Notes: generated by a model not told the origin, from the sequence alone. 26,472 nucleotides of DNA from a virus (IMGVR_UViG_2630968705_000016), one strand, 5' to 3'. Positions 5,467-25,278 are shown, numbered from the stretch's first letter. Made by a program: numbers and translations.

Positions 5467-5767
5467 AGACACGTCGTATGCAAGAACTTGCTGCGGCTGG
5501 ATGGTGGACTTTCGATAGTGCGAGTATTGAATGATTTCCATCTATTATAGATTTTACCGTATTTCGGCATGAATGAAACTGAATATCCTCCCACCGACCC
5601 TCCATGACTTTACACCACTGTCTCTGGGGCTGCTATGTGCCAGTAGAGGACGTTGCTAGTGTCAGCCTATGTTAATCAACAGGGAGCAGGTCACACTGTC
5701 GTCTCAGAATACCTAGCGCATAGGTCACACGAACTTCCAACTGTATTGCTTGTTTTCGTGGCTAAGC

Positions 5768-6907
5768 CTATTTTTGTTGATGATACCAATGCAACATCAT
5801 CCGGAGCTTCAATAGAGTTGTACTGTCATCATCCTCAGAACAAAAATTGTATCGCCCGCCTGAATATTCATTTAACTTGTCCAAGTAAAAGCCACCCATT
5901 GGGTCATATCTATCAGAGTGGAGCCAAGTAAACATTTTCTGAAGAACGTAATGCAGGGCATTTTTCGGAAGTGTTGAAATCAACACGCCATGCTTAGTTG
6001 CTAAATCCTCAATATTCATTTCCTGAAGATTATATCTAATCTCTACTGCAATTGGATGTAGTTTACTTAAAAATACGTCAGCTTCATCCTTGAGATGTGC
6101 CTCTTTAACATTCCCCTCGAACAACTTTATTAACTCTTCCACTTCCATTCGGTAATAATCGTTATCACCTCGCACCGCAACTTCTGAAAGAAGCAACTTT
6201 AACTCAGCATGAATGTTATCAGTAGACGGTATAATCTGTTTGGATAGGGTGCTGTAATGTTTTATACGGATTGCTATTACGGAACCCTTTAGGCTTGTTA
6301 GATATTTATACCTATCTTCAATATATGTAATTAGCTCATCGAATTTAATGCCGAAAATAACATCATCTTTCCCTGGCGTGTTGTTGTAAAGGCTTATAGT
6401 GAAATCATTTTCATTGAAAGCATGAAAATGAGGCCAGCTTGCAAACAGTCGCTCACCATCACTATTTTTAAGATTTGTAGGGTGAGCACCAAAGATAGCT
6501 CGAATACTCTTAAAGTATGCGTCATCATCCTCATGTGAAAGATAGGGCGTTTTATTCTTAAAGACATTCGTTGATTTCTTGAAAGGCCACCTCGCTAACT
6601 TATCATCACTCTCAATGATGCGGTGAAGCTGCTGCAACGCCTCCACAGCAATATCAATAGATGATATAAGGCAGTAAACCTGCATGGCCTTGACATCAAT
6701 ATCTTCCGACAGCTCAGGGAAGTTCATCAGATTGCGAACAGAAACGCTTATCCAATCCATGCACGAACAGATAGGGCTGAACTGGTTTTTACCATTTCTG
6801 TTTATGAAGTAGCTGTAAGCAAACTCCCCTTCATTAACCACATCTCGAAAATCAGTTATTAAAGTATCATCAATAGTTACACCAAAATCTGCCTTGGTCA
6901 TCTTCAT
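5768..6907 (-). CDS. Hypothetical protein (about 379 aa), AT-rich orphan gene
   Basis: Long minus-strand ORF. The six-frame track starts at a TTG (6922); the first ATG is at 6907 and a second at 6901. No clear SD. No domain recognised by eye. Confidence 0.75.
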   Translation of the reverse strand: MKMTKADFGVTIDDTLITDFRDVVNEGEFAYSYFINRNGKNQFSPICSCMDWISVSVRNLMNFPELSEDIDVKAMQVYCLISSIDIAVEALQQLHRIIESDDKLARWPFKKSTNVFKNKTPYLSHEDDDAYFKSIRAIFGAHPTNLKNSDGERLFASWPHFHAFNENDFTISLYNNTPGKDDVIFGIKFDELITYIEDRYKYLTSLKGSVIAIRIKHYSTLSKQIIPSTDNIHAELKLLLSEVAVRGDNDYYRMEVEELIKLFEGNVKEAHLKDEADVFLSKLHPIAVEIRYNLQEMNIEDLATKHGVLISTLPKNALHYVLQKMFTWLHSDRYDPMGGFYLDKLNEYSGGRYNFCSEDDDSTTLLKLRMMLHWYHQQK

Positions 6908-7301
6908 GGAAATCACTTTCAAATCAGCACACTTAGAGGTTGATTGTGACCGTTATCATAGGCAAAAACAATTCAGTAGGTTGACCAGCCCCCCCCCATA
7001 ACGCAAAATTGCTCGATTTAAGTATGCATTCCAACTTCCGCTCCTCGCTCATAACAGACATTCACTACAGTTATGGTAGAAGGTATGCATGCTGGGTGGG
7101 GAAAGTATGAAGGAAAAGAAGGCTGCTGTGTCGTTTGACATCACTGCAATCTTCTTATTGGTTATGCGGGTCGTAGTGGGACAAAACTGAGACACATAAG
7201 GCCTAGCAATGGCTTGCAAGGCTTTACATGTTTTGATGTGGTGGGACTTGTGAGCGCAGTGTTGATGGGGTAATGCTTTGAATTAGAAGCGGATTCTTAT
7301 A

Positions 7302-7347
7302 ATTCGTAATGCGAAGGTCGTAGGTTCGACTCCTATTATCGGCACCA
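7302..7347 (+). other. Partial tRNA-Thr(CGU) (thrW-like) 3' portion; integrase att core
   Basis: ATTCGTAATGCGAAGGTCGTAGGTTCGACTCCTATTATCGGCACCA matches the anticodon loop through the CCA end of E. coli tRNA-Thr(CGU). The 5' half (GCCGATATAGCTCAG...) is absent upstream. Confidence 0.7.
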
Positions 7348-7364
7348 TTCAAACATCTCCCCAA

Positions 7365-7450
7365 GTCTACTAAAGTCTTTCAAAACCCCTTATAATCCGC
7401 GTATTAAAGCCCCGTTCGTCTTTTGACGTCTACTAAAGTCCCTCAAAATC
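7365..7450 (+). promoter_or_regulatory. Two direct repeats (GTCTACTAAAGTCyyTCAAAA), putative integrase arm-type binding sites
   Basis: Near-identical 21-23 bp copies at 7365-7386 and 7428-7450, between the tRNA fragment and the integrase start. Confidence 0.4.
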
Positions 7451-7512
7451 TACGGTCAGATGGGGGTACTTATGGGGGTATTTGCTGTTCGGTTTAGTGG
7501 AGGTACCCCCAA

Positions 7513-8727
7513 GTGAAACTCAATGCCCGTCAAATAGACACAGCCAAGCCAAAAGAGAAGGCTTACAAGCTGGCCGATGGTGGCGGTTTGTATCTCTTGG
7601 TAAAACCTAATGGAGGTAAATACTGGCGACTTAAATATCGTGTAGCTGGTAAAGAGAAGCTATTGGCACTAGGTGTGTATCCTGAGGTTACTCTAGCCGA
7701 TGCTCGGGCAAAACGAGAAGATGCGAAAAGAGGTATCGCTGGTGGTATCGATCCGATGGAAGCGAAACGAGAGGAAAAGATTGCCCGGGAAACGCAGTTA
7801 AACAACACCTTCAAAGATATTGCCCTTGAGTGGCACAGCAGCAAATTAAAAAAATGGTCTGCTGGTTATGCTTCAGACATCCTCGAAGCCTTCAACAAAG
7901 ATGTGTTCCCTTACATTGGCAAAAAACCAATCGCCGAAATCAAACCACTTGAACTTCTGAATGTGCTGCGGCGCATCGAGGGGCGCGGTGCGACAGAAAA
8001 AGCCAAAAAAGTGAGGCAGCGGTGCGGGGAAGTTTTCCGTTATGCAATAGTCACTGGTCGCGCAGAGTATAACCCTGCACCAGACCTTACTAGCGCGATG
8101 CAAGGCCATGAATCTAATCATTACCCTTTCCTTACGACCAAAGAATTACCTGATTTTTTCAAGGCATTGTCCAGTTACTCAGGAAGCGCATTGGTTGTTA
8201 TGGCGGCTCGTCTACTGATTATCACCGGCTTGCGAACTGGCGAACTACGTGGCGCATTATGGGATGAAATTGATTTCAACAAGGCTATATGGGAGATACC
8301 CGCTTCACGTATGAAAATGCGGCGGCCTCATATTGTGCCATTGTCTGAGCAGGCTCTTTCGCTTATTGGGAAGATTAGAGAAATAACAGGCAATTACCCT
8401 CTTATGTTTCCCGGGCGCAATGATCCAAGGAAAACAATGAGTGAGGCCAGCATAAACCAAGTGTTTAAGCGCATTGGCTACGCTGGACGTGTAACTGGTC
8501 ATGGGTTCCGACACACTATGAGCACGATTTTGCATGAGCAGGGCTATAACACCGCGTGGATAGAAACGCAGCTCGCTCACGTTGATAAGAACTCAATTCG
8601 TGGCACATACAACCATGCGCAATATCTGGATGGACGGCGGGAGATGCTTCAATGGTATGCCGACTATATGGATTCTCTCGAGCATGGCGGAAATGTGGTG
8701 CATATGGTGTTTGAAAAACACGCATGA
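7513..8727 (+). CDS. int: Tyrosine recombinase, P4-type phage integrase
   Basis: 404 aa, GTG start with GGAGG RBS. N-terminal signature (KLNARQIDTAKPKEK...DGGGLYLLVKPNGGKYWRLKYR) typical of P4-family integrases. Catalytic elements GLRTGELR, HGFRHT and RGTYNHA (R, HxxR, Y) present. Confidence 0.93.
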   Translation: MKLNARQIDTAKPKEKAYKLADGGGLYLLVKPNGGKYWRLKYRVAGKEKLLALGVYPEVTLADARAKREDAKRGIAGGIDPMEAKREEKIARETQLNNTFKDIALEWHSSKLKKWSAGYASDILEAFNKDVFPYIGKKPIAEIKPLELLNVLRRIEGRGATEKAKKVRQRCGEVFRYAIVTGRAEYNPAPDLTSAMQGHESNHYPFLTTKELPDFFKALSSYSGSALVVMAARLLIITGLRTGELRGALWDEIDFNKAIWEIPASRMKMRRPHIVPLSEQALSLIGKIREITGNYPLMFPGRNDPRKTMSEASINQVFKRIGYAGRVTGHGFRHTMSTILHEQGYNTAWIETQLAHVDKNSIRGTYNHAQYLDGRREMLQWYADYMDSLEHGGNVVHMVFEKHA

Positions 8728-9154
8728 AACAACTGGACAAGTATACAGAGGTTTACTAAAGTATAGGGGAGTAGATTGATAAAAACTCACAGAGGATTGC
8801 TATTTAACAGTTAGCCCTGGAGAAGGGCAATCGCTCTTTTATAAACGAAGGTGTATTGAGCCTTCTACGCTGCTGAAAAGCGGAATGTTCTTTAACAGGC
8901 TTTGGCGCTGACAAAGCGCAATTGTTCTTTAAAACTACTGGATGTCACGCCTAATAGCGTGATCCTGCCGAAATGCAGGGTAGCTCTACCCTTGTGGAGC
9001 AAACAAACCAAAACAATCTGACTATCTTTTATAAAAGACCGCAATATGTTTTTCATATTGTGGTCTTTGGCGTATTCGACATTTGACGCAAATAAAACTC
9101 TCGCCATTCGTTGCAGGAGGGGGTTATTGCGTCATTAGTACAGGATATTAATAA

Positions 9155-9358
9155 ATGGCTAATTACAATTCATTAATTCGTCTCTCTGAAGTTCAAAGGC
9201 GAACTGGTTATAGCAAAGCATGGATTTATCGTCTTATTAGTCAGGGGAGGTTCCCTAAACAGGTAAAAATTGGAAGTCGGGCAATTGCTTTTGTTGAGTC
9301 TGAAATAGATGAATGGATTGAGAAGTGTATATTAGAATCTAGAGACGAGGTGGCCTGA
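9155..9358 (+). CDS. alpA: AlpA-family transcriptional regulator / excisionase-like protein
   Basis: 67 aa; IRLSEVQRRTGYSKAWIYRLISQGRFPKQVKIG...ESEIDEWI matches the AlpA/Vis HTH pattern. Confidence 0.85.
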   Translation: MANYNSLIRLSEVQRRTGYSKAWIYRLISQGRFPKQVKIGSRAIAFVESEIDEWIEKCILESRDEVA

Positions 9359-10807: not shown

Positions 10808-11241
10808 TACCCATCCAGAAGAAGACATTTTCACTGGCTGGTATGTCGCCAAAATCCAGAAATATGACGGCAAAGTCAGGCATTAATACAGCAGATACAA
10901 GCAAAGTTTATCATTTGCTGGTGGCCGGAACGGATGCCTTAACCATACCAGAAATCTCGGGCGATGATATTAGCCTTGAGAAGGTCAGCGGCTGCGCCAG
11001 AAAATTTCTGGTCGTAGATGATGTCTTCCGCTCGTGTAGTGACTCCACAAAAACATTCGTCCACGCGCGTGACGTTAACGAAATGAGCGCGATGTACTGT
11101 GCTTCTGGTTCTTCCAATAGTGAGTTTTCGGAGTCCATAAAAAAGAGCTTGCCGTTATGCGGCAACACGGTTTATGGTTATAAGGCACCTCATAAAACGG
11201 GTGCCGGGTTTCGCAGCCCGGAAATGTACGAGGCGACACAT

Positions 11242-11263
11242 GACGCGCCGAGCGTCTTTTTTT
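11242..11263 (+). terminator. Rho-independent terminator-like hairpin plus T7 run
   Basis: GACGC-GCCGA-GCGTC hairpin (11242-11256) followed by TTTTTTT (11257-11263). Lies inside the annotated 355-aa ORF 10804-11871. Confidence 0.5.
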
Positions 11264-11465
11264 GTGCCGTTAGCCAGACTCACACTTTTTTCAGTGATGT
11301 GGTTATAATCCGCGTCGCTTGCAAAATTATGGTGGGCTGGACAGGGCAGCCGAAAGGCTGGCCGGTTTCCTTGTACGCCGGTACTGCGAACTCTGTTCAG
11401 TCCACCACCAGCGAGTTTCGCAGCTCCGGTGGTGGGAAGAATTCCCAGTACAAGGAGGCTGCCAC

Positions 11466-13483: not shown

Positions 13484-13847
13484 AAATGCAGAAATGGCGC
13501 TTAGCTCCGCAATCGGAGAGCAGGTGGCAAAGATTGCTGGTGCTGTGTGGATTCATAACCTTCATTCTACTGGTGAAGAGAAAATGGCAATTCAGACGCC
13601 AGAGGGACGCATCATTACTACATCTCTGAAGCCGTCAGATGTTTGTGATCTGATTTGCGCATTCATGTACCCAGCAATGAGGACTGCCCACGGCGATAAG
13701 TGGAAACTTGCGACAACCGCTGAATTTGATATGTGGCTAAACAATGATGGCATGCTGACTGATTACGGAATAACCAAGTGGCAGATGCTGGTTAGCCATA
13801 TCGCAAACGCTATAGACCACGTGGGGTACGGTGATGCGAAACATTGA
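13476..13847 (+). CDS. Hypothetical protein (123 aa)
   Basis: ORF with GGGAGG RBS upstream; 3' end overlaps the primase start. Confidence 0.6.
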   Translation: MRENAEMALSSAIGEQVAKIAGAVWIHNLHSTGEEKMAIQTPEGRIITTSLKPSDVCDLICAFMYPAMRTAHGDKWKLATTAEFDMWLNNDGMLTDYGITKWQMLVSHIANAIDHVGYGDAKH

Positions 13848-16590
13848 TCTTATCCGTCAGGTTATCAGTGCGTCTGAAAACAACTGGCCTCATGTGCTGG
13901 GCTGCCTGAACATAAATGTCCCTGACTCTCCGCGCCGTCATGCTCCCTGCCCTGCATGTGGGGGCAAAGATCGATTCCGGTTCGATGACAACGGGCGCGG
14001 TAGCTTCATCTGTAATCAGTGCGGCGCTGGTGATGGGCTGGATTTAATTAAACGCGTAAATAACTGCGACACAACAGAGGCGGCGCTTCTTGCCGCTGAT
14101 GTTCTGGGTATTGATTACCGGACAACGGAAACACCAGAAGCCACCAGCCAGAAACGGGAACAACTGGAAACCGAGCGCCAGCGACGCGAACAGGAGCGCC
14201 TGAAAAGGGCAGAGAAGGACGAACAACAAAGACGGGATACGTTTTCCCGTCAGTTTGATGACATGCGCAGAAAGGCTGTAAACGGCAAATCTGATTATCT
14301 GGTTGCGAAAGTGGTAGGTGATTTTACATTCCCCGTGTTGCCCGATGGATCTCTGTTGCTGGCGCTGGTGGATAAATCCGGCGCAGTCACAGCAGCACAG
14401 ACTATTACCTCACATGGTGAAAAAAGACTCCTGACAGGTTCAGCAAAGCGGGGGGCATATCACGCCATAAACGCACCAGAAACAACACAGAGCATCTTAA
14501 TCGCAGAAGGGCTGGCAACGGCATTATCTGCCCATTTAATTCGTCCAGAGGCGCTGACAGTGGCGGCGATTGATGCCGGGAACCTGTTATATGTCGCCCA
14601 GGTACTGCGGGATAAATATCCTTCAGCACAAATCATCATTGCTGCGGATAACGACCACAGCGAAGGAAGACAAAACACGGGGAGAATAGCAGCAGAAAAA
14701 GCAGCTTTATCTGTTTCTGGATGGGTGGCATTACCCCCGACAGATCACAAAGCAGACTGGAATGATTACCACCAAAAACACGGCATTAAATGCGCCACAG
14801 AAGCGTTCAATAAGTCAATGTACCAACCACAGGGTAATGGCGTGAAACAGGAGCCACAGACCATTGAGGGAAGCGATTTTAAGGTTATGGATACCGACCC
14901 ACTGAAACCAAGAATAGAAAGCCGCGAGGATGGTATTTATTGGGTATCTCCGAGAGCTGACAGCCAGAGTGGAGAAATCATCAATAACGAAAGCTGGTTA
15001 TGTTCTCCGTTAAGCGTTATCGGTACTGGCAGAGACGATAAAGACCAGTATCTCATTCTTCGCTGGCTGTCGTTTGGTTCTGAAACGCCGACAACCGCTG
15101 CCATTCCACTGGCTGATATTGGTGAACGTGAAGGATGGCGCACACTTAAAGCTGGTGGGGTAAATGTCACGACCAAAAGCAGCCTCAGAGCAATACTGGC
15201 AGACTGGCTACAACGCAGTGGCTCTCGTGAATTGTGGCGTGTTGCTCATGCCACTGGCTGGCAATGCGGAGCGTACATCATGCCTGATGGGGAAATCATC
15301 GGAACACCTGAAAATCCTGTGCTGTTCAGCGGGAGAAGCTCAGCCGCAGCCGGATATACCGTCTCAGGGAGCGCGAAAAGCTGGCGTGATAACGTGGCGC
15401 GTCTGGCCTTTGGTAACTATTCAATGATGACCGGGATCGGCGCAGCACTGGCAGCGCCATTGATTGGGCTGGTGGGCGCTGACGGGTTCGGCATTCATTT
15501 CTATGAGCAGTCGAGCGCAGGTAAGACCACCACGGCAAACGTGGCGAGCAGCTTATACGGCAACCCTGATTTACTGCGGCTGACGTGGTACGGAACCGCG
15601 CTGGGGCTGGCAAATGAGGCCGCCGCCCACAATGACGGACTAATGCCGCTTGATGAAGTTGGTCAGGGCGCTGATCCTGTCAGCGTTTCACAGTCTGCCT
15701 ATGCGTTATTTAACGGTGTAGGGAAACTGCAAGGCGCTAAAGATGGTGGAAACCGGGATCTAAAACGTTGGCGTACAGTGGCAATCAGCACCGGAGAAAT
15801 GGATTTAGAAACATTTATCGCTACTTCCGGGCGAAAAACCAAAGCCGGGCAACTGGTGCGACTGCTGAATATTCCGTTGAGTAAAGCAGTACGCTTTCAC
15901 GATTACCAGAACGGAAAACAGCACGCAGACGCACTGAAAGACGCTTACCAGCATCACCACGGCGCGTCCGGGCGTGAGTGGATTAAATGGCTGGCAGACC
16001 ACCAGCAACAGGCTATTAAAACCGTTCGTGATTGCGAAAGCAGATGGAGAAGCCTGATCCCATCCGATTATGGTGAGCAGGTTCACCGTGTAGCCGCGCG
16101 ATTTGCCATTCTGGAGGCCGCATTGTTGTTAGGCGAGGTTGTAACAGGCTGGGATGCTCAGACATGCCGTGATGCGATACAGCACAGCTATAACGCATGG
16201 TTGCGTGAGTTCGGCACAGGTAACAAAGAGCATCAGCAGATTATTGAACAAACGGAGGCATTTCTTAATGCCTATGGGCTTAGCCGTTTTGCACCATTTT
16301 CATACAGCCCGGCAGATTTGCCCATCAAAGATTTAGCCGGATACCGTCAGCGTGGAGAACATGACGAAAGCCCAATGATTTTCTACACATTCCCGGCCAC
16401 ATTTGAAAAGGAGATCGCATGTGGTTTCAACGCAAAACAGTTTGCTGAAGTGTTGAAAAAAGCCGGGATGCTAACCCCACCAAACAGCGGTCGTGGATAC
16501 CAAAGAAAATCACCACGTATTCAGGGACGACAAATAAACGTTTATGTACTCAATTACCAGCCAGGAGATTATAACTCATCTGAAGAATGA
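13831..16590 (+). CDS. Primase-helicase (P4 alpha-like: zinc ribbon + Toprim primase + P-loop helicase)
   Basis: 919 aa. CPACGG...FICNQCG zinc-binding motif; Toprim-like AEGLATA and IIIAADNDHSEG (DxD); Walker A SSAGKTTT and Walker B-like LMPLDEV. Start could be the GTG at 13831 or the ATG at 13834. Confidence 0.9.
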   Translation: MMRNIDLIRQVISASENNWPHVLGCLNINVPDSPRRHAPCPACGGKDRFRFDDNGRGSFICNQCGAGDGLDLIKRVNNCDTTEAALLAADVLGIDYRTTETPEATSQKREQLETERQRREQERLKRAEKDEQQRRDTFSRQFDDMRRKAVNGKSDYLVAKVVGDFTFPVLPDGSLLLALVDKSGAVTAAQTITSHGEKRLLTGSAKRGAYHAINAPETTQSILIAEGLATALSAHLIRPEALTVAAIDAGNLLYVAQVLRDKYPSAQIIIAADNDHSEGRQNTGRIAAEKAALSVSGWVALPPTDHKADWNDYHQKHGIKCATEAFNKSMYQPQGNGVKQEPQTIEGSDFKVMDTDPLKPRIESREDGIYWVSPRADSQSGEIINNESWLCSPLSVIGTGRDDKDQYLILRWLSFGSETPTTAAIPLADIGEREGWRTLKAGGVNVTTKSSLRAILADWLQRSGSRELWRVAHATGWQCGAYIMPDGEIIGTPENPVLFSGRSSAAAGYTVSGSAKSWRDNVARLAFGNYSMMTGIGAALAAPLIGLVGADGFGIHFYEQSSAGKTTTANVASSLYGNPDLLRLTWYGTALGLANEAAAHNDGLMPLDEVGQGADPVSVSQSAYALFNGVGKLQGAKDGGNRDLKRWRTVAISTGEMDLETFIATSGRKTKAGQLVRLLNIPLSKAVRFHDYQNGKQHADALKDAYQHHHGASGREWIKWLADHQQQAIKTVRDCESRWRSLIPSDYGEQVHRVAARFAILEAALLLGEVVTGWDAQTCRDAIQHSYNAWLREFGTGNKEHQQIIEQTEAFLNAYGLSRFAPFSYSPADLPIKDLAGYRQRGEHDESPMIFYTFPATFEKEIACGFNAKQFAEVLKKAGMLTPPNSGRGYQRKSPRIQGRQINVYVLNYQPGDYNSSEE

Positions 16591-16615
16591 GCTTCTTCAT
16601 GTGCGTAGAAAAGGT

Positions 16616-16726
16616 GTTGGTTCAGTTGGTTCAGTTGGTTCAATTTGTAAAGAGTATTGTTTTATAATGATTTTATTCTTTTTATTGAACCAACACTGAA
16701 CCAACAACACGGTATTTTGAACCAAC
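16616..16726. repeat. Iteron cluster 1 (putative replication origin)
   Basis: Three perfect tandem GTTGGTTCA 9-mers (16616-16642), an AT-rich spacer, then three TGAACCAAC inverted copies (16686-16694, 16697-16705, 16718-16726). Begins 26 bp after the primase stop. Confidence 0.75.
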
Positions 16727-17046
16727 ACAATGTGACTGAATTGATGCGCACAACACCTGGCTGGCATCAGAGAGTGTTTTACGAGACTTTCGTAAAATCC
16801 TGTGTACAAGGGCGTGACGTTTTTGAAAGTGAGCACTACGAAATTTTCGTAGTTCAAAAAACAGCCTCTGAGAAGTTGTTATGCCTGTTCAGCAAACCAT
16901 CCGCATAGCTGATCGCGAATCAAATTACCAATGGAGCCAGAAGCAAGGGCAGAACTGAAAAGCGCCTGCCGTGAAGAGTAATGCGACACCATAAATATAG
17001 TTTTTAGAGTCCATAAAAAACCTGTCAAAACCTGACACACAGAACG

Positions 17047-17080
17047 ATGCCACCAGCTACTGAGCGGTGGCATTTTTTTG
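17047..17080 (+). terminator. Rho-independent terminator
   Basis: Perfect 8-bp stem ATGCCACC/GGTGGCAT with an 11-nt loop, followed by TTTTTTT (17074-17080). Confidence 0.7.
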
Positions 17081-17174
17081 TGCTATTTGTTTCATATTTT
17101 GCAATTACGATGATGAATATTGCGATTTGTGAAACTATAATAACTGTTGTTTTATACAGTTCTAAGGGGGCGTT

Positions 17175-17336
17175 ATGGCTATTTCAGTAAAGCCGGTATT
17201 GATAAGTGAGAAGCAAATGGAAGCGATAAAGAAAATTCAGGAAGAGCAGCGTAAAAAATCAGGAATTGGAGTAGCGCCAACTCTGCATGAAATTGCACGA
17301 GGGTTAATAGATAAGGCGCTGGCAGGCTGTATGTGA
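17175..17336 (+). CDS. Small hypothetical protein (53 aa), possible DNA-binding regulator
   Basis: Strong RBS AAGGGGG 5 nt upstream of ATG; MAISVKPVLISEKQMEAIKKIQEEQRKK... Not on the ORF track because it is under 60 aa. Confidence 0.5.
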   Translation: MAISVKPVLISEKQMEAIKKIQEEQRKKSGIGVAPTLHEIARGLIDKALAGCM

Positions 17337-17352
17337 AAATGGATGGCATCGC

Positions 17353-17814
17353 ATGGAACTAAAATTTATTGATAACCCTGTGCGATTACAGGCCTTTCTT
17401 AACGAGCCAGGCAATACCGAAAATATTGTTGAGCCGGGGCACACGTACTACATCAAGCCTGATGCGGTATATCTCGGCATCTACGAAGGATTAGTGCTGG
17501 CTGGCGTTCATGAAGTGCGTAACTTCTGGCATAGCGTTGTTGAATGCCATGCGGTGTACGACCCCGGATTCCGTGGTGAATATGCACTGCAAGGGCATCG
17601 ATTATTCTGCAAATGGCTTCTCGAAAACTCACCATTCCTTAACAGCATTACCATGGTTCCTGACACCACCAAATACGGACGGGCAATTATCCGTTTGCTT
17701 GGCGCTACCCGTGTTGGTCACCTTGATGATGCTTATATCAGATGTGGTAAACCCGTCGGCGTAACGCTTTATCAGTTAACTCGGCAACAATATAAGGAAT
17801 TCAGCGAATGTTAA
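17353..17814 (+). CDS. Hypothetical protein (153 aa), first gene of the ejection-like cassette
   Basis: ORF coupled to the downstream gene (ATGTTAA overlap); no domain recognised. Confidence 0.7.
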   Translation: MELKFIDNPVRLQAFLNEPGNTENIVEPGHTYYIKPDAVYLGIYEGLVLAGVHEVRNFWHSVVECHAVYDPGFRGEYALQGHRLFCKWLLENSPFLNSITMVPDTTKYGRAIIRLLGATRVGHLDDAYIRCGKPVGVTLYQLTRQQYKEFSEC

Positions 17815-18485
17815 TTACCCACATAGCTCATAAACATCTCAATCGTGCCGTATACGAAAAAGGCGGTGATGGTGGTGCCTCTAAAGCTCAGGCGAAGGCC
17901 CAGCAGCAGGCAATTGATTTGCAGCGCGAGCAGTGGAATACGGTGATGAATAATCTCAAGCCGTATGCAGAAGTCGGATTGCCTGCTTTACAACAACTAC
18001 AAGGACTGATGACTCTGGAAGGGCAGAATAAAGCCGCGAATGATTTCTTTGGTTCTGGTTTATATAAAACACAGGCAGATCAGGCCCGTTATCAGAACCT
18101 TGTCTCAGCAGAAGCTACCGGGGGGCTTGGCTCAACAGCTACCAGTAACCAGTTATCTTCCATTGCGCCCATGCTTTATAACAATTGGCTCAGTGGGCAA
18201 ATGCAAAATTATGGAAACCTGCTAAATGTCGGGATGAATGCGGCATCAGGGCAGGCAACGGCAGGGCAAAACTACGCCAATAATACCGGACAACTCTTGC
18301 AGGGGCTTGGCGCTATTCGTGCAGGTCAGGCGCAGCAGCCATCCAGTCTTGCGCGTGGTATTGGTGGGGCAGCATCAGGCGCTTTAGCGGGTGCGCAACT
18401 TGGTTCCGTTGTTCCTGGAATAGGAACTGCGGCCGGCGCTATTGGTGGTGGGCTTATTGGTCTTGTTGGGGGGCTTGGATTCTAA
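17808..18485 (+). CDS. Hypothetical protein with glycine-zipper-like C-terminus (225 aa), internal-virion/ejection-like
   Basis: Q/A/N/G-rich; C-terminal GIGGAASGALAGAQLGSVVPGIGTAAGAIGGGLIGLVGGLGF suggests a membrane-inserting glycine zipper. Coupled to flanking genes. Confidence 0.75.
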   Translation: MLITHIAHKHLNRAVYEKGGDGGASKAQAKAQQQAIDLQREQWNTVMNNLKPYAEVGLPALQQLQGLMTLEGQNKAANDFFGSGLYKTQADQARYQNLVSAEATGGLGSTATSNQLSSIAPMLYNNWLSGQMQNYGNLLNVGMNAASGQATAGQNYANNTGQLLQGLGAIRAGQAQQPSSLARGIGGAASGALAGAQLGSVVPGIGTAAGAIGGGLIGLVGGLGF

Positions 18486-19804
18486 TGGCGACATGGCAAC
18501 TTGGCGGGCTGCCTAGCATGGCACCGCAAAATGATAATGCTCCTCGTTCTTCCGTTCCTCAGCCTGTGCAGTATCAGCAGCAGCCAAACGTAGGTTTAAT
18601 GGCGCTACAGGGGCTAAGAGGCGTTGCTGAGATTAATCAGCAGGCGCAAATTTCCCAGCAGTTAAAAGAATATCAGGCACGGTTGGGTAGTGCGGTAGCT
18701 AATAATGATCGTGTTGGCGTGCAGAAGTTAATGGCCCAGTATCCCCAGTTTATGGCTGATTCTCAAAAACAGATGGGATTCATTGATGCTGAGCAAAATC
18801 GACAGACCGCTGACGCTGCCATGAATCTGCGTCTTGCGTCACAAACTGGAGATCCACTGACCATGCAGAAGGCCATTCAGCAGGCAAATCCAGTATTACA
18901 GCGATTTGGTCTTCCTGCTGAAGAGGTTTATCAGTCTTGGCAGAATGACCCACAGGAATTCAACAGAATCACTGACCTCATCCACCTCCATGCTGATCCA
19001 AATAGTTACTTTAGTGTTCAAGAGAAGCAGCAAGGGCAGAGCATTGCACAGCAGAACGCAGATACATCCGCATATAATGCTCAGGTTAATGCGGAACAGG
19101 GTAATCGACGTCTCGATATGGAGCAGTTCAAAGTCCTATCCGATAACCAACTACGCACGAGAGAAATGGTTCTGAAAGCACGACTTGGACGTGCTCAAAA
19201 TGACATCGAGAGAGACAAGCTCAATGCTGAACTGAGCAAGATACAGCAGGCGAAAGTGGAGAAGATGAACGATAAAATTAATACTGTTGCAGGTAACATC
19301 GACTCCTTGAACTCTGCGCTTGAAGTGGGTCATGAACTGGCGGGAATTGTAGGGAAACATCCTTCGGCCGTTACCCGCTCGCAGAACTATAACCCCCTGA
19401 CGCTGGGGTTTGGATTCCTTCCTGATGTAGCAGAAGACACACGAAGCCTACGCGCCAAAGCTGATGAATACAACCTAAAGGTTATTCTGCCTAGCCTCAA
19501 AGGGACTTTTGGCTCTAACCCAACCGAAGGGGAAAGGGCTGCCCTTATGCAATCTCAAAATGGCATTAAGTCAGCAACCAGCAATGAGGCATTTTTGCGA
19601 GAGTTGAATAAAGCGCAGGACGTAATTATTCGAATGCAGAAACGACAGATTGCCGGGCTCGGTATTCCTGTAACCAAATCTAAGGACGAAGAAACTGATA
19701 CCAAAATGCTGTTGCAGGATCCTTCACTGGTTAAGGATTATGTGACCGCACATGGCTATCTGCCGGAAAGTTACTATCAGGCAAAACTTAAGGGATGGCA
19801 ATGA
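18485..19804 (+). CDS. Hypothetical Q-rich protein (439 aa), internal-virion/ejection-like
   Basis: Start overlaps the upstream stop (TAATG); low-complexity Q/N/A-rich composition typical of phage internal core proteins. Confidence 0.8.
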   Translation: MATWQLGGLPSMAPQNDNAPRSSVPQPVQYQQQPNVGLMALQGLRGVAEINQQAQISQQLKEYQARLGSAVANNDRVGVQKLMAQYPQFMADSQKQMGFIDAEQNRQTADAAMNLRLASQTGDPLTMQKAIQQANPVLQRFGLPAEEVYQSWQNDPQEFNRITDLIHLHADPNSYFSVQEKQQGQSIAQQNADTSAYNAQVNAEQGNRRLDMEQFKVLSDNQLRTREMVLKARLGRAQNDIERDKLNAELSKIQQAKVEKMNDKINTVAGNIDSLNSALEVGHELAGIVGKHPSAVTRSQNYNPLTLGFGFLPDVAEDTRSLRAKADEYNLKVILPSLKGTFGSNPTEGERAALMQSQNGIKSATSNEAFLRELNKAQDVIIRMQKRQIAGLGIPVTKSKDEETDTKMLLQDPSLVKDYVTAHGYLPESYYQAKLKGWQ

Positions 19805-22521
19805 TGGCACAACTGACAGAAAAACAGAAAGCCTATTCCCGTCATCTCGATGAAAAATATGGTTTCCCATCAGGGACGATGGAAACATTAGTTGGCAATG
19901 AATCTAGTGGTAACGGAAGTGCCGAGTCACCGAAAGGAGCTAGAGGATTTGCTCAACTGATGCCCTCAGTAATGAGTGATGCTGGTTATCGTGGAACAGA
20001 TCCGCGCTCACTGCCATTTGAAAAGCAAATGGATATCGCAGCAAACCATCTCAATAAAGGAATGAAGCGATTTGGTGATATAGGTATGGCATTGGCTGGG
20101 TATAATTCTGGCTATGCTCGTATTAATGCCGTCAGAAACGGTAAATCTACACTGCCAGATGAAACGGCTAATTACGTAAGTAAATTTGCAGATGCCGGAA
20201 TAATCCCTGATGACAGTGAAATCTTGCAGTTTGCACAAACCAGTCAACATCGCAATCTTCAGCAGCCTGACTACTCAGAGCTTGATAAAGAAATCTCTCA
20301 GGTGGGAGATATTTCTGCATGGGAAGCAAAACGTCAGCAATTTAAGAACATAGAAGCAGGACTACCAACAGCCAGTTCATGGGAGCAGAAAAGAGCTCAG
20401 TTTCTCGCCGATGAAAATGCCGGGGAACCGCAGCAGCAAGTAGCCAAGTCTAACCTTAATCCTGAGATGGAATATCTTTCGCCAGGACTGAAAGCTGCGC
20501 CAGAGCAGATGGCCAGAGGGATTGCTAATATACCGTTTGATGTAATGGACGCAGGCGTGGGGGTAGTCAATGCGGCGCAATCAGCCGGAGCATGGGCAGC
20601 TCAGAAGCTTGGTGTGGGTGATGGCACATACACGCCCATATCACCTGTCTTTCGCCCAGTAGACCAACCTACAGATCCATACGCGCAGGCTGGTGAGCAG
20701 CTAGCACCTTACCTTATTACAGGATTAGGTGTAGGAAAGGCAGCTACCGCAGCTTCTTCAGTTGCCAACGCTCCACGTGCTGAACGTGCGGCCACAAAGG
20801 TGGCTAGTATGTTGGCAGAAAACCTGCCAGGTACATTGGTGAACGCCCAAAAGAACGGGCAGATCAGCCCAGAAGACCTAGCAAAAGAGACAGGTATTGG
20901 CCTAGCAGGATCGCTAGGAGCACGCGCTTTAATAAAGAGCGGACAGACAGCCAGTGACGTAATGCGAGATGTATTGCGGAGTAATACAAATCAATCAGGC
21001 CATGTGTTAGGGGCAGCAAATACTCTGGAAACCGCCAATGATGTATCGAAAGCAGCGCGTTCTGCCGTAGGCCGAGAGCATATCGCATCGCAGGCATCAA
21101 ACGTCAGAGATGATGTCGCTAAGGCGGCGAAAATCACTGGTATTAATATCAACACCCTGACGCCTGGAATGCGCTCAGGTAGTCGTGGAATTGCCCAAGC
21201 AGAAGGTGTTCTGGCATCAACTCCTGGGAATGTTCAGGATGCTCACCTTACGGCCTTCAATGAAATATCCTCAAAGTTGAATAAGCAGTTGTCTGATTTC
21301 GGTGCTGAGTCTGGAAGCGCATCAGAAAAAAGCGCAGCAATTAAAGAGCGCATCATCGCGAGCCTCAGTGATATGAAAACAGCAGAGAATATGGCATGGG
21401 CAGAACTGCGAAGCACGATGCCACGCGAAAGGATGAAAATGAGTAATGGGATGGCTGTCGTCCAAGCAGAAAAAGCAGCCAATGTTCCACTCAGCCCGGA
21501 GATGAAACAGTTTCAGGCTGCCAACAACCAAGGTGGCGGCATAACCTTCGACGGGATGAAGGCATGGCGTGCTAAGTTTGCTGATGCTGAACAAGCAAAC
21601 ACCCGGGCAGGTAAGGCCAATGCCGCCCGGATTGCCGGAGAAATGCGCAGAGCTATCACTGATGACATGCGCATCATGGCTGAAAAAGGAAACTTCCTCA
21701 CAGAATGGCAGAAAGCTAACGATCTCTCTAAAAGTTACATTATCGCCAAACAAAATGCCGAATCTGTTTTTGGTCGAGATCTCGCATCAGACGCTATGGT
21801 AAGAAAAGGTGCCGATACGCTTAAGGCATCCGCAAACACTGGAACGGGAGCTTTTCACCGTCTTATCTCCGCGCTGCCGGAAGCAGAACGCCAACCTGCA
21901 ATAGCATCTATTCTTCAGCATGCTGTGGCGCAGGGAGAGAAGGGAGGAATCGGTGAAGAGTCAGGTATCCAGTATTTTGCCAAGCTCATGACCCAGCAGA
22001 ATGTAAACGCCATCAGTCGTCATGCGCCAGATCTCGGTAGAATGATGAAAGAGTTCGGTGTACTCGCTAAAGCCAGTACCAGACCGCAGCGATACGTAGA
22101 GCGCACGGGAAGAACAACTGAGGCTCTCAAAACGCTCGATTCAGGCCTTCCAAAGATCGTCGGCGTGATTATGAACGGTGTTCAACAGTCAGGTGCGATC
22201 GCTGGAGGCTTTGGCGGTGGTGTAATTGGTTCGATTAGTGGTTTGGTTGCTGGTGGCGCGCTAAGAAATGCTGTGGCTAAGATTGGGGCGACAAGAAGTG
22301 GTCGATATGCGATAGAGAAAGCCGTTCAGGAAGCTACAAAAGCAGTGCGCGCAGGGGCATCACCAGCAGCGATCGCCGCAGCAGAGAAACGATTTTCGGC
22401 CAATAAAATTGCCATGAAAGCAATTCGTGATGCCGTTGGGGCTGAAGAATTCGTGAAACTGACAAGGGCCGGGATTGTAGCTACCCTCAGTGGCATGAAA
22501 GATGTTAGCGAATGGGAATAG
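19795..22521 (+). CDS. Large protein with N-terminal lytic transglycosylase (SLT) domain (908 aa), T7 gp16-like architecture
   Basis: N-terminal motifs ESSGN (catalytic Glu context), GFAQLMP and AGYNSGYA match SLT family signatures. The remainder is long and A/G/Q/S-rich with a glycine-rich segment (GAIAGGFGGGVIGSISGLVAGG) near the C-terminus. Confidence 0.88.
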   Translation: MAMMAQLTEKQKAYSRHLDEKYGFPSGTMETLVGNESSGNGSAESPKGARGFAQLMPSVMSDAGYRGTDPRSLPFEKQMDIAANHLNKGMKRFGDIGMALAGYNSGYARINAVRNGKSTLPDETANYVSKFADAGIIPDDSEILQFAQTSQHRNLQQPDYSELDKEISQVGDISAWEAKRQQFKNIEAGLPTASSWEQKRAQFLADENAGEPQQQVAKSNLNPEMEYLSPGLKAAPEQMARGIANIPFDVMDAGVGVVNAAQSAGAWAAQKLGVGDGTYTPISPVFRPVDQPTDPYAQAGEQLAPYLITGLGVGKAATAASSVANAPRAERAATKVASMLAENLPGTLVNAQKNGQISPEDLAKETGIGLAGSLGARALIKSGQTASDVMRDVLRSNTNQSGHVLGAANTLETANDVSKAARSAVGREHIASQASNVRDDVAKAAKITGININTLTPGMRSGSRGIAQAEGVLASTPGNVQDAHLTAFNEISSKLNKQLSDFGAESGSASEKSAAIKERIIASLSDMKTAENMAWAELRSTMPRERMKMSNGMAVVQAEKAANVPLSPEMKQFQAANNQGGGITFDGMKAWRAKFADAEQANTRAGKANAARIAGEMRRAITDDMRIMAEKGNFLTEWQKANDLSKSYIIAKQNAESVFGRDLASDAMVRKGADTLKASANTGTGAFHRLISALPEAERQPAIASILQHAVAQGEKGGIGEESGIQYFAKLMTQQNVNAISRHAPDLGRMMKEFGVLAKASTRPQRYVERTGRTTEALKTLDSGLPKIVGVIMNGVQQSGAIAGGFGGGVIGSISGLVAGGALRNAVAKIGATRSGRYAIEKAVQEATKAVRAGASPAAIAAAEKRFSANKIAMKAIRDAVGAEEFVKLTRAGIVATLSGMKDVSEWE

Positions 22522-22671
22522 ACGCTCTAACTAACAAAACCATAATAGCCAAGGACGGCATACTGATATTGAGCCAACTATCAAAATTCCATATCACATT
22601 ACGAGCCTGTGGCTTACATTCGCTTACAGTGATGATAATTTATAACCACGCAATTCTTAGGTGAGATTATC

Positions 22672-23370
22672 ATGATTAAAAATCTTCTTTTAATATTATC
22701 CCTGTCATTATTGGCTGGATGCGTACAAAAACCGTTAGTAACGGTCAATGCTTTATCTTCCGGGCAATCTGTCGGTAAGAAGTTCTTGATCATCCCCGCA
22801 AGCCAAGAACTTTGGAACACCAAACAGATTGAATACACTCAAATAGCTACGGTAGTAGCCGCCAGTTTATCAAGCCAAGGATATACACAAGTTAAAGATG
22901 AAAAATTGGCTGACCAGGTAATTCTCTTGAACTTTTTGAGAAGTGGGGCCATTTCAAATACTCGTAATGTAACCATCCCAATATACGGGCAAACTGGTGT
23001 GAGCTCAGCAACAACGTACGGAAACTCGAACACCACGTTCAATAGTTATGGTGGTGGCTACGGTACAGCTAATACCACTGGAACGGCAACAACAGTTTAT
23101 ACGCCTACTTATGGAATTACTGGCGCGTATAACACAACTGTGACGGACACGTTCTACGGCGCAGGGGTGATACTCCAGTCGTTTGATGCCAAGGCTTATC
23201 TCAATAATCGGCAGATTAATATGTTATGGAAAGTTGGTAGCTCAGTCGTCTCGCAACAGTCTGATGGAATTGCTGATTACAAAGGGTTGGCGAGAATAGC
23301 CGCTAGCTATGCCGGGAAAAATACAGAAGGTGATATAACTTTTAATGTTGACCCTAAAGCACCAAATTAA
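22672..23370 (+). CDS. Putative lipoprotein (232 aa)
   Basis: Signal peptide with lipobox LLAG|C; AGGTGAG RBS; T/G/N/Y-rich central region; lower GC than neighbours. Confidence 0.8.
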   Translation: MIKNLLLILSLSLLAGCVQKPLVTVNALSSGQSVGKKFLIIPASQELWNTKQIEYTQIATVVAASLSSQGYTQVKDEKLADQVILLNFLRSGAISNTRNVTIPIYGQTGVSSATTYGNSNTTFNSYGGGYGTANTTGTATTVYTPTYGITGAYNTTVTDTFYGAGVILQSFDAKAYLNNRQINMLWKVGSSVVSQQSDGIADYKGLARIAASYAGKNTEGDITFNVDPKAPN

Positions 23371-23377
23371 CTAATAA

Positions 23378-23427
23378 GCCCGGTACGCCGGGCATTCATG
23401 CCCCTATTATTCATGAATCGCTTTTTC
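23378..23427 (+). terminator. Terminator-like tandem hairpins downstream of the lipoprotein gene
   Basis: GCCCGG-TACG-CCGGGC hairpin (23378-23393), then ATTCATG...CATGAAT hairpin (23394-23418), followed by CGCTTTTTC. Confidence 0.4.
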
Positions 23428-23584
23428 TGGAAGGTATGCGACAAACGTTAAGTGACATTGCCTACACATTCGGGGCTCAAATCCGCTCCCAGTTGATGGG
23501 GCCGTTACAGTACGCGCATATCCGCTTTATGTGAAACAGGAAGATTTTTCTGATATCACTGCCACAGCAAAACACCAATTTCGA

Positions 23585-23600
23585 GACAAGTACGCGCGCG
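23585..23600. repeat. GACAAGTACGCGCGCG motif, copy 1
   Basis: Exact 16-mer with an alternating (CG) tract; a degenerate copy (GACCAGTACGCACACG) follows at about 23638-23653. Confidence 0.6.
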
Positions 23601-23870
23601 AGGGGTATCAGTTGCAAAATTTTTTGCAACTGCGTCCGACCAGTACGCACACGATGGCGGGGGATACCATAAAAGTGTTCTCTACATGAGACAGAGTGGT
23701 GGTGATGTGTTGATTATCGGCGTATATGCGCACAGGACGCGCTATGACAATGTTTTATGCGGGTACACCAATCACATGTATCTGACGTGATAAATCGCGT
23801 TACATGACATCTCATGTTGTGCTGGTGGTTATCACGACGTTCTGAATCTGGCCTTTGCCTGATATTTTGC

Positions 23871-23886
23871 GACAAGTACGCGCGCG
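23871..23886. repeat. GACAAGTACGCGCGCG motif, copy 2
   Basis: Exact 16-mer in the context ATTTTGCGACAAGTACGCGCGCGTAGCATC. Confidence 0.6.
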
Positions 23887-23914
23887 TAGCATCGACAGCA
23901 TACACATTGGATAT

Positions 23915-24136
23915 TCATTTTGTGACCAATGCGATAAGTAGCGGGATAAGAATTGATAAAATCAACAGGCCGATGATCCACTTTTGATTTTCACTGGCCT
24001 TATCTCTATTTTCATCAATCTTATCAATAATTCGACGCTCCAGGCCGTGCATATCACCGCGAATGGCAATCATCTCATTGCGAACATCCGAGAAGTGGTT
24101 GGCTTGATGTTCAATGTGTGGCGTTCTGCCTTTCAT
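23915..24136 (-). CDS. Small putative membrane protein (73 aa)
   Basis: AGGTGAGGA RBS on the minus strand; charged N-terminal region and C-terminal hydrophobic helix WIIGLLILSILIPLLIALV. Confidence 0.5.
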   Translation of the reverse strand: MKGRTPHIEHQANHFSDVRNEMIAIRGDMHGLERRIIDKIDENRDKASENQKWIIGLLILSILIPLLIALVTK

Positions 24137-24215
24137 TCCTGATCCTCACCTATCGTCACCACCTGCTGGTGTATAAAGGTATTGGCCCAAGCAGCTTTCC
24201 AATGGGCACTCATGT

Positions 24216-24671
24216 TTATACGCTGACCTTACAATCAATCACCGCTTTTAACTTTTCAGCATTGCTTCCCTGACGCTTCCACGCGCTGTAAATATCTTTA
24301 TCCCACGCTTTACCAGCTTTTGTTTGATAGCCTGCTTCATTGATCCGTTCAGCTATCACACGCCCATTATCAAATCCCTGTCGGATGGTATCGGCAATGA
24401 TCTTTATAACTGCCGTTTCGTTATATGGCTTTGGTGGGATGTTCGGCTTTCCGGCAATAAGCGACGCAGCAGCTTTTTCCATGCGCTCCACCAGCCCAAG
24501 CATTCGTGAATCAATAGACTTTTCCGGCTGTCCCAGCTTCATGCGAATCGCATCAACAAGCCAGGAGGTTTTATCCCCTCCAGAAGCGAGAACAGACCGA
24601 TTAAACTCATCCTGCAATTCAGATGGGATGCGGAACGCGACCAGATTAGATTTGCTCATTGCAAAGACCAT
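24216..24671 (-). CDS. Putative DNA-binding regulatory protein (RHH-like N-terminus), 147-151 aa
   Basis: N-terminus SNLVAFRIPSELQDEFNRSV...SWLVDAIRMKL has a beta-strand/helix/helix pattern; start is ATG at 24671 or 24659. Transcribed divergently from the PerC-like gene, with iteron cluster 2 between them. Confidence 0.65.
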   Translation of the reverse strand: MVFAMSKSNLVAFRIPSELQDEFNRSVLASGGDKTSWLVDAIRMKLGQPEKSIDSRMLGLVERMEKAAASLIAGKPNIPPKPYNETAVIKIIADTIRQGFDNGRVIAERINEAGYQTKAGKAWDKDIYSAWKRQGSNAEKLKAVIDCKVSV

Positions 24672-24773
24672 ATCAGTGAGTAATATCCATACAGTATATC
24701 ACTGTATAACACTGTTATACGCTCAAATATCAGCCAGAAAATAACGGGCCAATCACAAAGCTATCGCTGTGTT

Positions 24774-24894
24774 GTTGGTTCAGAGCTGGGCTGTGTTGGT
24801 TCAAAATGAGTTGATGTTGGTTCAATATTTTAGAAAAAACATAATAAAAACAACAATCTTTACAAATTGAACCAACTGAACCAACTGAACCAAC
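24774..24894. repeat. Iteron cluster 2 (inverted copy of cluster 1)
   Basis: GTTGGTTCA at 24774-24782, 24795-24803 and 24816-24824; AT-rich spacer; three tandem TGAACCAAC at 24868-24894. Its reverse complement aligns with cluster 1, with about 45 bp identical at the tandem end. Confidence 0.75.
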
Positions 24895-24930
24895 ACCTTT
24901 TTGCTTATCTATATAATCTGAGAGGCAGAA

Positions 24931-25212
24931 ATGATAAGGGACAGGAAAGCTGAAGAGCTGGAGTCAAAAGGGCTATACCGGAGAGCTGCCGCACGATGGA
25001 TGGAAGTCATGCTGTTATGCAGCGAGGACGATGATCGGGAATGGATAAAGCGCCGCCGTGAAACGTGTCTGGAGAACGTGAAGCGCCCGCCCGTGAAGGT
25101 TGAGGAATTTGGCGACCTGCATAAAGCTGTTACCGAAACGCAACACCGCATGGGGATAGCGCAACCGAACGGTAACGCCTTCCGGTTAAATGGCGGTAAG
25201 AGGCAAAGGTAG
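24931..25212 (+). CDS. PerC-family transcriptional activator-like protein (93 aa)
   Basis: GAGAGG RBS; MIRDRKAEELESKGLYRRAAARWMEVM... matches my recollection of the PerC/Pch N-terminal signature. Confidence 0.7.
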   Translation: MIRDRKAEELESKGLYRRAAARWMEVMLLCSEDDDREWIKRRRETCLENVKRPPVKVEEFGDLHKAVTETQHRMGIAQPNGNAFRLNGGKRQR

Positions 25213-25260
25213 ACCACCAGAGGGAAATCATCCTCTGGCTGGCGGTTTCTGGTATTTCGG

Positions 25261-25278
25261 GACAAGTACGCGCGCGCG
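25261..25278. repeat. GACAAGTACGCGCGCG motif, copy 3 (one extra CG unit)
   Basis: GACAAGTACGCGCGCGCG in the context TATTTCGGGACAAGTACGCGCGCGCGTAGCACC, sharing about 30 bp of context with copy 2. Confidence 0.6.

Follow-up and report, generated by a model that had tools for sequence, protein, structure and literature searches.

Two mirrored iteron clusters, most likely a double origin split by cargo genes, in an Escherichia coli thrW phage-satellite island

The viral sequence IMGVR_UViG_2630968705_000016, 26,472 nucleotides (nt) long and called the window here at its full length, was analyzed for two clusters of a short repeat at 16616–16726 and 24774–24894. The element that carries them is an E. 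coli thrW phage-satellite island of about 20.7 kb, of the type of the Gram-negative phage-inducible chromosomal islands (PICIs). Both clusters are built from the same 9-mer iteron, GTTGGTTCA, and stand 8.1 kb apart in inverted orientation, the first directly behind the gene of a primase-helicase fusion protein (Pri-Rep). Most likely, the clusters are the two halves of a split double origin of a PICI-type satellite, separated by cargo; origins of this general kind are known, and the split layout is a variant of them. The probability that the two clusters are both origin modules cognate to Pri-Rep and belong to one element was estimated at roughly 0.7.

Architecture of the two clusters and their link to Pri-Rep

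The 9-mer GTTGGTTCA was found in 12 exact copies in the window, and all 12 lie inside the two clusters. When one mismatch was allowed, 17 matches were obtained against an expectation of 5.75 ± 2.36, and none of 100 shuffles reached 17. Cluster 1 begins 25 nt after the Pri-Rep stop codon (16590). Its outer set consists of three tandem exact copies on the plus strand (16616–16642). These are followed by a spacer of 43 nt with 86% A+T (16643–16685), which starts with the conserved motif ATTTGTAAAGAnnnTTGTTTT and is presumed to be the unwinding element, and by an inner set of three spaced copies on the minus strand (16686–16726) that start at 16686, 16697, and 16718, at intervals of 11 and 21 nt. 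Cluster 2 shows the mirrored order, with three spaced copies on the plus strand (24774–24824; starts at 24774, 24795, and 24816, intervals of 21 and 21 nt), a 43-nt spacer, likewise 86% A+T, with ATTTGTAAAGAnnnTTGTTTT on the minus strand (24825–24867), and an outer set of three tandem exact copies on the minus strand (24868–24894). The average A+T content of the island is 52%. In the GC-skew and composition profile, the A+T-rich dips were the sole usable signal.

A repeat search of the window recovered inverted arms of 55 nt (16609–16663 and 24847–24901) with 96% complementarity, and the mirrored clusters are confirmed as real and non-random. A preliminary description of this DNA had reported two clusters on one 9-mer, each with three tandem and three spaced copies around an A+T-rich spacer, the first abutting the primase-helicase stop; both the coordinates and the architecture proved exact. 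Its statement that cluster 2 is the reverse complement of cluster 1 applies to the outer half, which comprises the tandem repeats and the spacer start, but not to the inner halves, which are about 82% alike and differ in the intervals of their spaced copies.

Cluster 2 had also been placed between divergent regulator genes. This was borne out on its right side, where a PerC-family regulator (24931–25212, plus strand; Pfam PerC, E = 1e-30) starts 37 nt past the tandem iterons, but not on its left side, where a gene of 151 amino acids (aa) on the minus strand (24216–24671) has no family assignment; it gave no Pfam match even at E ≤ 5. A ribbon-helix-helix regulator was tried for the 151-aa gene and dropped, as an hhalign comparison with CopG gave the right register at a probability of 0.3%.

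Pri-Rep (919 aa; 13831–16590, plus strand) is a fusion of primase and helicase, with the Pfam domains Zn_Ribbon_Prim, Toprim_3, and DUF927. Residues 8–362 matched residues 5–339 of the P4 alpha protein with 33% identity over 359 aligned positions (E = 6e-42), and no similarity to P4 alpha was found past residue 362. Compared with PDB sequences, residues 403–814 matched 8tch, a 'Pathogenicity island protein' (E = 1e-11), and 5dgk, an 'Active helicase', the latter less strongly. The helicase core is homologous at sequence level to the Rep proteins of the Staphylococcus aureus pathogenicity islands (SaPIs) through the 8tch match.

For comparison, 77 loci encoding relatives of the primase-helicase were fetched from species-representative genomes. 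An iteron cluster was present 3' of the stop codon in nearly all full-length loci. Across about 60 homologous loci, the iteron class tracked a motif within the last ~40 residues of Pri-Rep. The iteron GTTGGTTCA is accompanied by GRGYQRKSPRIxGRQ (core RKSPRI), GAGACAACA by GRGYQGRVREDGRQ (core GRVRED), and GTCGGTTCA by KGVTRKTLRIDGKQ (core GVTRKTLRIDGKQ) and, in locus L022, by RKTPRI. In the same way, ACGGGTTAY is found with RxKKKALRKMGGKQH (core KKALRKMGGKQH), ACTTATCCC with WQIRTPRLKH, and GGTCGG(T/G)T with KGITKKTLV. A change of iteron affects both modules in most loci. Because the iteron class co-varies with the C-terminal motif, this comparative evidence points to the last ~40 residues of Pri-Rep as the part that reads the repeat. 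The co-variation in these relatives also bears out the earlier proposal that both clusters are iteron arrays of the adjacent primase-helicase.

Paired modules in related islands

Two modules in inverted orientation were found in most of about 60 related islands, which come from many enterobacterial genera. About 27 loci have a compact layout, in which 9–12 iterons occupy about 260 nt in the pattern +++--- --+---. The inverted modules are here separated by about 43 nt, and the tandem sets form the outer ends. The compact pattern was found in five of six specificity classes, and the ACTTATCCC origins are arranged differently. In 13 loci with a split layout, the second module is 0.4–9 kb away, and the tandem sets are always outermost. 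These loci are the window, L013, L019, L021, L026, L035, L037, L055, L060, L061, and L062, together with L063 of the ACTTATCCC class (second module at +7.8 kb) and L042 of the GGTCGGTTT class (second module 0.4 kb away). Split relatives with an intact distal module come from Escherichia, Leclercia, Cedecea, Serratia, Pantoea, Rosenbergiella, Chimaeribacter, Lonsdalea, and Citrobacter, and their cargo is unrelated. The sharing of one 9-mer by both clusters, first described for the window, holds in the compact loci and in the 13 split loci, other specificities included. A scan of IMG/VR agreed with the '+ then -' arrangement, in entries that are mostly prophage predictions from isolate genomes and carry no packaging evidence.

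The spacers of the distal modules seen are all A+T-rich (72–88%) and contain the motif ATTTGTAAAGAnnnTTGTTTT, which is also present in the first modules. Distal modules from different genera have features in common that set them apart from first modules, which marks them as old paralogues and not recent copies. In Yersinia pekkanenii (L034), three copies of about 700–850 nt, each comprising the primase 3' end and a double origin, were observed on one contig (8024–8716, 12606–13298, and 13787–14509), which may reflect either tandem elements or an effect of the assembly.

The PICI Pri-Rep/ori system is the family nearest to this element. In the Gram-negative PICI EcCICFT073, the origin lies directly 3' of pri-rep and has two oppositely oriented iteron sets around an A+T-rich region (PMC6092414); it was validated experimentally (Fillol-Salom et al. 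2018, PMC6092414). The backbone that the island shares with EcCICFT073 consists of integrase, AlpA, DUF4222, Pri-Rep, origin, and PerC, and the PICI hallmarks found in the island are an integrase beside the att site, AlpA after it, Pri-Rep, and an origin 3' of pri-rep. In the CFT073 sequence, this origin likewise has two halves, with outer tandem pairs that are inverted over 18 nt and 89% complementary. However, its Pri-Rep has 584 aa and its iteron is CTGTCTACC; its halves are contiguous (about 230 nt) with a G+C-rich second spacer, whereas 8.1 kb lie between those of the window, and A+T-rich spacers are found in both. The cargo of EcCICFT073 consists of capsid genes, and that of the window of P22-like ejection genes. 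A G+C-rich spacer motif, GCCGCGCCAnnACTGG, was observed in the second halves of L004, L005, L006, L033, L040, L046, and L145 and also at the EcCICFT073 origin (L148, 13185–13215), and it spans different Pri-Rep alleles and iteron sequences.

In SaPI origins, 6–12 iterons lie immediately downstream of rep around an A+T-rich center, with opposite orientation on either side, and a winged-helix domain within the C-terminal domain of Rep recognizes them; SaPI5, too, has a primase-Rep fusion (PMC9371898). The SaPI repeats are 5–6-mers, whereas 9-mers were found here, in a Gram-negative host. Displacement of the second module by kilobases, as in the window, is unreported for SaPIs in the literature examined. 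Since cluster 1 follows the stop codon after 25 nt and has opposed iterons around an A+T-rich spacer, as in the SaPI/PICI layout, it fits a canonical PICI/SaPI origin exactly, and cluster 2 is predicted to be a second complete origin module. By analogy, the C-terminal domain of Pri-Rep probably adopts a winged-helix fold.

As a rule, the family origin comprises two inverted modules, which in this island are separated by 8.1 kb of accessory genes. As judged from the SaPI/PICI literature, Pri-Rep would bind the iterons through its C-terminal domain once the island is induced and excised, and would then melt the A+T-rich spacer. As a relative of the self-loading SaPI Rep helicases, it would load itself as the helicase and subsequently prime synthesis. 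Module 2 may fire as an origin, enhance module 1 by looping, or control copy number or its neighbor perC, each of these roles being unlikely when taken singly.

PICI and SaPI origins have been described as one compact iteron block after rep. Here, this block consists of two modules that can be separated by 0.4–9 kb and are nevertheless conserved across many enterobacterial genera. The class of mechanism is known; the separation of the halves by kilobases, with cargo between them, was not found described in the literature searched. If both modules are active, they would offer natural material on how a self-loading Rep helicase is placed for bidirectional replication, and on whether a distant iteron site can act on an origin, as in P4. 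For annotation, a satellite origin need not end at the first iteron block.

Circular records and E. coli variants were compared with the window. The E. coli record L144 (NZ_CP148430.1) is a circle of 12,152 bp that contains the early genes, Pri-Rep, both clusters, a homologue of the 151-aa gene, and PerC, and its integrase differs from that of the window. It is devoid of window positions 17324–24260, hence of the ejection cassette, and for this reason its clusters (6540–6650 and 8436–8556) are only 1.8 kb apart. The Klebsiella record L145 (CP031370.2), a circle of 19,229 bp, carries a compact double origin. Both records were deposited as plasmids and are satellite islands in circular form. Both clusters lie within one att-bounded, circularizable mobile unit.

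The same cassette was found in 71 E. coli genomes. In the sampled rows H57–H68, both flanks with their clusters are kept at a span of 6.7–9.3 kb, and the cargo alleles are divergent. Therefore, the split state persisted during cargo diversification.

In E. coli D72 (L082, NZ_CP035312.1), the backbone is that of the window, and the DNA of the primase domain (window 13834–14668) is 93.7% identical. A block consisting of the helicase, the C-terminus, and cluster 1 has given way to a DUF5906 helicase, which comes with repeats of its own, CTGTACCAC (5312–9000); these form two clusters about 1 kb apart on either side of two small genes. Of the old cluster 2, two iterons remain (15989–16018). Together with E. 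coli Survcare253 and Serratia oryzae, described below, this case suggests that the helicase, the C-terminus, and the first module travel as a unit.

Several observations weigh against two cognate origin modules in one element. Eleven loci with about 10 kb of downstream sequence have a single module within reach, so the second module may be non-essential. Many compact origins, that of EcCICFT073 among them, have a G+C-rich second spacer; thus, the two halves are not always equivalent. In Serratia oryzae (L057), a nearly intact GTTGGTTCA distal module (17871–17985) accompanies a Pri-Rep and origin of the ACTTATCCC class, and E. coli Survcare253 carries an intact cluster 2 with the right arm (window 23779 onward) and lacks Pri-Rep. 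With D72, these two cases suggest that a distal module can outlive its partner. Regarding the protein, the AlphaFold model of the C-terminal 160 aa of Pri-Rep, built on 24 aligned sequences that are all at least 77% identical, had a predicted local distance difference test score (pLDDT) of 41 and was unusable, and a profile of 23 diverse Pri-Rep C-termini gave only a chance-level match to PDB sequences.

These cases bear on the explanation that cluster 2 is a non-functional relic that the island does not use and that stems from a former compact origin or a different element, or part of a right-arm module (151-aa gene, cluster 2, and PerC) that is exchanged independently. The tandem and decayed elements at the thrW locus would agree with it, as would the occurrence of cluster 2 beside non-cognate replicons in L057 and L082 and in the right arm of Survcare253. 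However, the right arm of Survcare253 adjoins a lambdoid remnant, and because rusA is truncated at the junction, this strain is best read as a deletion derivative. In L082, the mismatched E. coli case, the cluster has decayed, whereas six iterons, the spacer length of 43 nt, and the spacer motif are intact in the window and in split relatives of many genera. The distal module matches the local specificity in the 13 split loci and in three E. coli variants (L080, L081, and L144), compared with two mismatched cases, and the circular 12-kb element has retained both clusters. A relic or independently exchanged module is considered improbable.

Other roles of cluster 2 and stability of the segment

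The preliminary description had likened the clusters to the ori/crr pair of P4. According to the annotated genome record NC_001609, from which the P4 layout was taken, crr follows directly after the alpha stop and consists of two direct 120-bp repeats with five type-1 repeats each, and ori, with six type-1 repeats, is 4.7 kb off, beyond the alpha operon. The likeness lies in one short repeat (8 bp in P4) that is used in two cis sites kilobases apart, one of which abuts the primase stop, and in the site at this stop being formed by modules of about 120 bp with repeats in both orientations. The P4-type integrase, a C4-type antisense RNA, and the homologous primase domain are further common points. 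In contrast, the helicase and DNA-binding parts are non-homologous, and the helicase of the island is DUF927/SaPI-Rep-like. Moreover, crr is made of direct repeats and the alpha operon lies between ori and crr, whereas inverted single modules, both downstream of the gene, are present here. The P4 hallmarks sid, delta, psu, and epsilon were not detected in the Pfam and PHROG assignments of 20 proteins (19 of the island), in which small open reading frames (ORFs) were scanned partly. The element is outside the P4 replication family, and the resemblance is functional and partial: the analogy of two cis sites sharing one repeat stands, and family membership does not, since only the primase domain is homologous.

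An obligate pair in the manner of P4 was nevertheless weighed, in which one cluster is the true origin and the other a crr-like cis enhancer contacted by looping of Pri-Rep. The position of crr at the alpha stop, which resembles that of cluster 1, the homology of the primase domains, and the retention of two modules in most relatives, whether adjacent or distant, all speak for such a pair. On the other hand, both clusters are complete modules with A+T-rich spacers of identical length, so that neither resembles a mere accessory site. The unrelated helicase and C-terminal parts, the different P4 geometry, and the eleven relatives with a single module within 10 kb also disagree with it. This explanation appears unlikely, and two complete origin modules of Pri-Rep are preferred.

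In the plasmids P1 and F, the initiator repeats form two arrays that flank the rep gene (incC/incA in P1 and incB/incC in F). The incA and incC iteron arrays of P1 and F limit the copy number, and the control array is devoid of an unwinding element. The presence of initiator repeats in two separate arrays on one replicon is common to these plasmids and the island, but in the island both arrays follow the gene and contain an A+T-rich spacer each.

Cluster 2 could accordingly be mainly a control site, which regulates the promoters of the divergent 151-aa gene and perC or titrates and handcuffs Pri-Rep. It fills the intergenic region of these divergently oriented genes, the short distance from the tandem iterons to PerC is similar in L004 and L144, and the 151-aa gene, located by tblastn and the iteron map of relatives, has the same position directly beside the inner iterons in six split relatives. 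However, simple consensus scans found no sigma-70-like promoter around either cluster. In compact relatives, the 151-aa gene is not preceded by iterons, and the distance between perC and the origin often amounts to hundreds of nt. The spacer of cluster 2, as A+T-rich and as long as that of cluster 1, also differs from the P1 and F control arrays. A role of cluster 2 mainly in control is thus judged to be quite doubtful, and the reading as a second origin module is retained.

A palindrome, ACAGTATATCACTGT, was observed at 24696–24716 together with a related half-site, in the interval that separates cluster 2 from the start of the 151-aa gene, and may be an operator.

The preliminary description had also proposed that the inverted clusters support inversion or deletion of the segment between them, that is, a switch by which recombination inverts or rearranges the 8.1-kb cassette. 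The inverted 55-nt arms with their 96% complementarity would suit such a switch. The predicted inversion junction was assembled as a query by joining the primase end to the reverse-complemented stretch of cluster 2 and the 151-aa gene. This junction was found in none of the 554 E. coli genomes that matched either half, and no match reached ≥80% query coverage. The orientation of the 151-aa gene relative to cluster 2 is constant in all relatives, and no recombinase or invertase gene was detected in or beside the segment by Pfam and PHROG scans. The invertible segments of the Hin, Gin, and Cin systems have an invertase gene and occur in both orientations, neither of which was found here. Deletion of the cassette is unsupported because recombination between inverted repeats cannot delete a segment.

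Among the E. coli variants, the cassette breakpoints are at about 17323 and 24260; the left one is some 600 nt inward of cluster 1, the right one some 500 nt inward of cluster 2. Iterons as recombination junctions for cassette exchange were rejected, as these breakpoints are away from the clusters. With the junction absent, the gene orientation constant, and the breakpoints outside the clusters, the proposal of inversion or deletion was not upheld, and a switch of this kind is considered highly improbable.

Cargo and other genes of the island

The segment between the clusters contains four P22-like genes on the plus strand (17353–22521), which were assigned by Pfam (DUF2824, P22_gp7, Inj_translocase, and SLT) and by PHROGs 651, 598, 917, and 770. 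They encode gp14 (17353–17814; DUF2824), gp7 (17808–18485; P22_gp7), gp20 (18485–19804; Inj_translocase), and an SLT-gp16 fusion (19795–22521; SLT). From these assignments, the products are predicted to be DNA-ejection proteins, and this cargo suggests a P22-like helper phage. Two further cargo ORFs encode 232 aa (22672–23370, plus strand; two sub-threshold Pfam matches) and 73 aa (23915–24136, minus strand; no significant Pfam match).

In the relatives, DNA-delivery parts of different phage morphotypes were observed downstream of the origin. Tape-measure proteins are encoded in L013, L019, L026, and L055, SLT proteins of 600 aa in L021 and L060, and Dit-like, baseplate-hub, and gpV-spike genes in L035 and L037. 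Other relatives have a conserved five-gene block to which no function was assigned. Satellites with their own injection machinery (ejection or tape-measure genes) were not found in literature searches. The segment between the iteron blocks is where the Pri-Rep satellite family keeps its most variable cargo.

A more speculative reading is that paired origin modules act across kilobases and that the gap between them is a dedicated cargo bay, which we regard as improbable. The delivery genes of split members sit within the gap, and those of compact members follow directly on the second module. If the reading were true, opposed origins could over-amplify the cargo in a replication-coupled manner or time its expression. 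It would then represent a new organizing principle of phage satellites and a bacterial-type iteron origin whose halves tolerate arbitrary separation. The cargo itself is possibly the larger lead: these satellites encode injection proteins, tape measures, or baseplate parts of their own.

The left end of the island was defined by comparison with E. coli APEC E19025 (NZ_CP126931.1). From 7302 onward, the window is 99.995% identical to this genome, and the identity begins exactly at 7302. Positions 7302–7347 (plus strand) are attL and comprise the 3' 46 nt of tRNA-Thr (thrW), identical to the 3' part of thrW in NZ_CP126931.1. ARAGORN found no tRNA in the window, and the 5' half of thrW is outside it. 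Window positions 1–7347 differ from the proA-thrW region of the otherwise identical genome NZ_CP126931.1. As thrW is represented by no more than its 3' 46 nt and the left 7.3 kb differ, a second element seems to stand in tandem to the left in the source genome, between an intact thrW and the island. A candidate attR, TCCTATTATCG-CACCATT, lies about 1.6 kb past the window end (NZ_CP126931.1; coordinate ~929 of locus L001) and equals TCCTATTATCGGCACCATT, the 3' end of thrW, except for a 1-nt deletion. The length of about 20.7 kb follows from the distance between 7302 and this candidate.

The gene order is integrase, AlpA, AntA/B, an Ash-family ORF, small ORFs, primase-helicase, cluster 1, and cargo; beyond these come three genes without assignment, cluster 2, PerC, and a protein with a Panacea domain. 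From int through SLT-gp16, every annotated gene is on the same strand, rightward. The P4-type tyrosine integrase (7513–8727, plus strand) has the Pfam domains Arm-DNA-bind_3, Phage_int_M, and Phage_integrase, and the AlpA-family regulator is encoded at 9155–9358 (plus strand; Phage_AlpA, E = 7e-20). The left cargo edge is formed by a conserved leader and an annotated small ORF of 53 aa (16727–17336, plus strand). By blastn against L144 and L082, both are retained even in variants in which the cassette is absent or the cassette or replicon is swapped.

Two RNAs with Rfam matches above the gathering score, isrK (11185–11262, 69 bits) and a C4 antisense RNA (11325–11412, 81 bits), were observed, both within the ORF annotated as Ash-family. 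They suggest an RNA immunity control in the style of P1 and P4 in the island. A 22-nt direct repeat, AGTTTTCGGAGTCCATAAAAAA, is present just upstream of isrK (11123–11144) and twice in the leader between cluster 1 and the cargo (16842–16863 and 16999–17020), and may be a shared control site. Finally, a 28-nt repeat ending in ACAAGTACGCGCGCG occurs in three copies on both sides of cluster 2 (23573–23600, 23859–23886, and 25249–25276), and shorter copies containing GTACGC are located at about 23510 and 23644.

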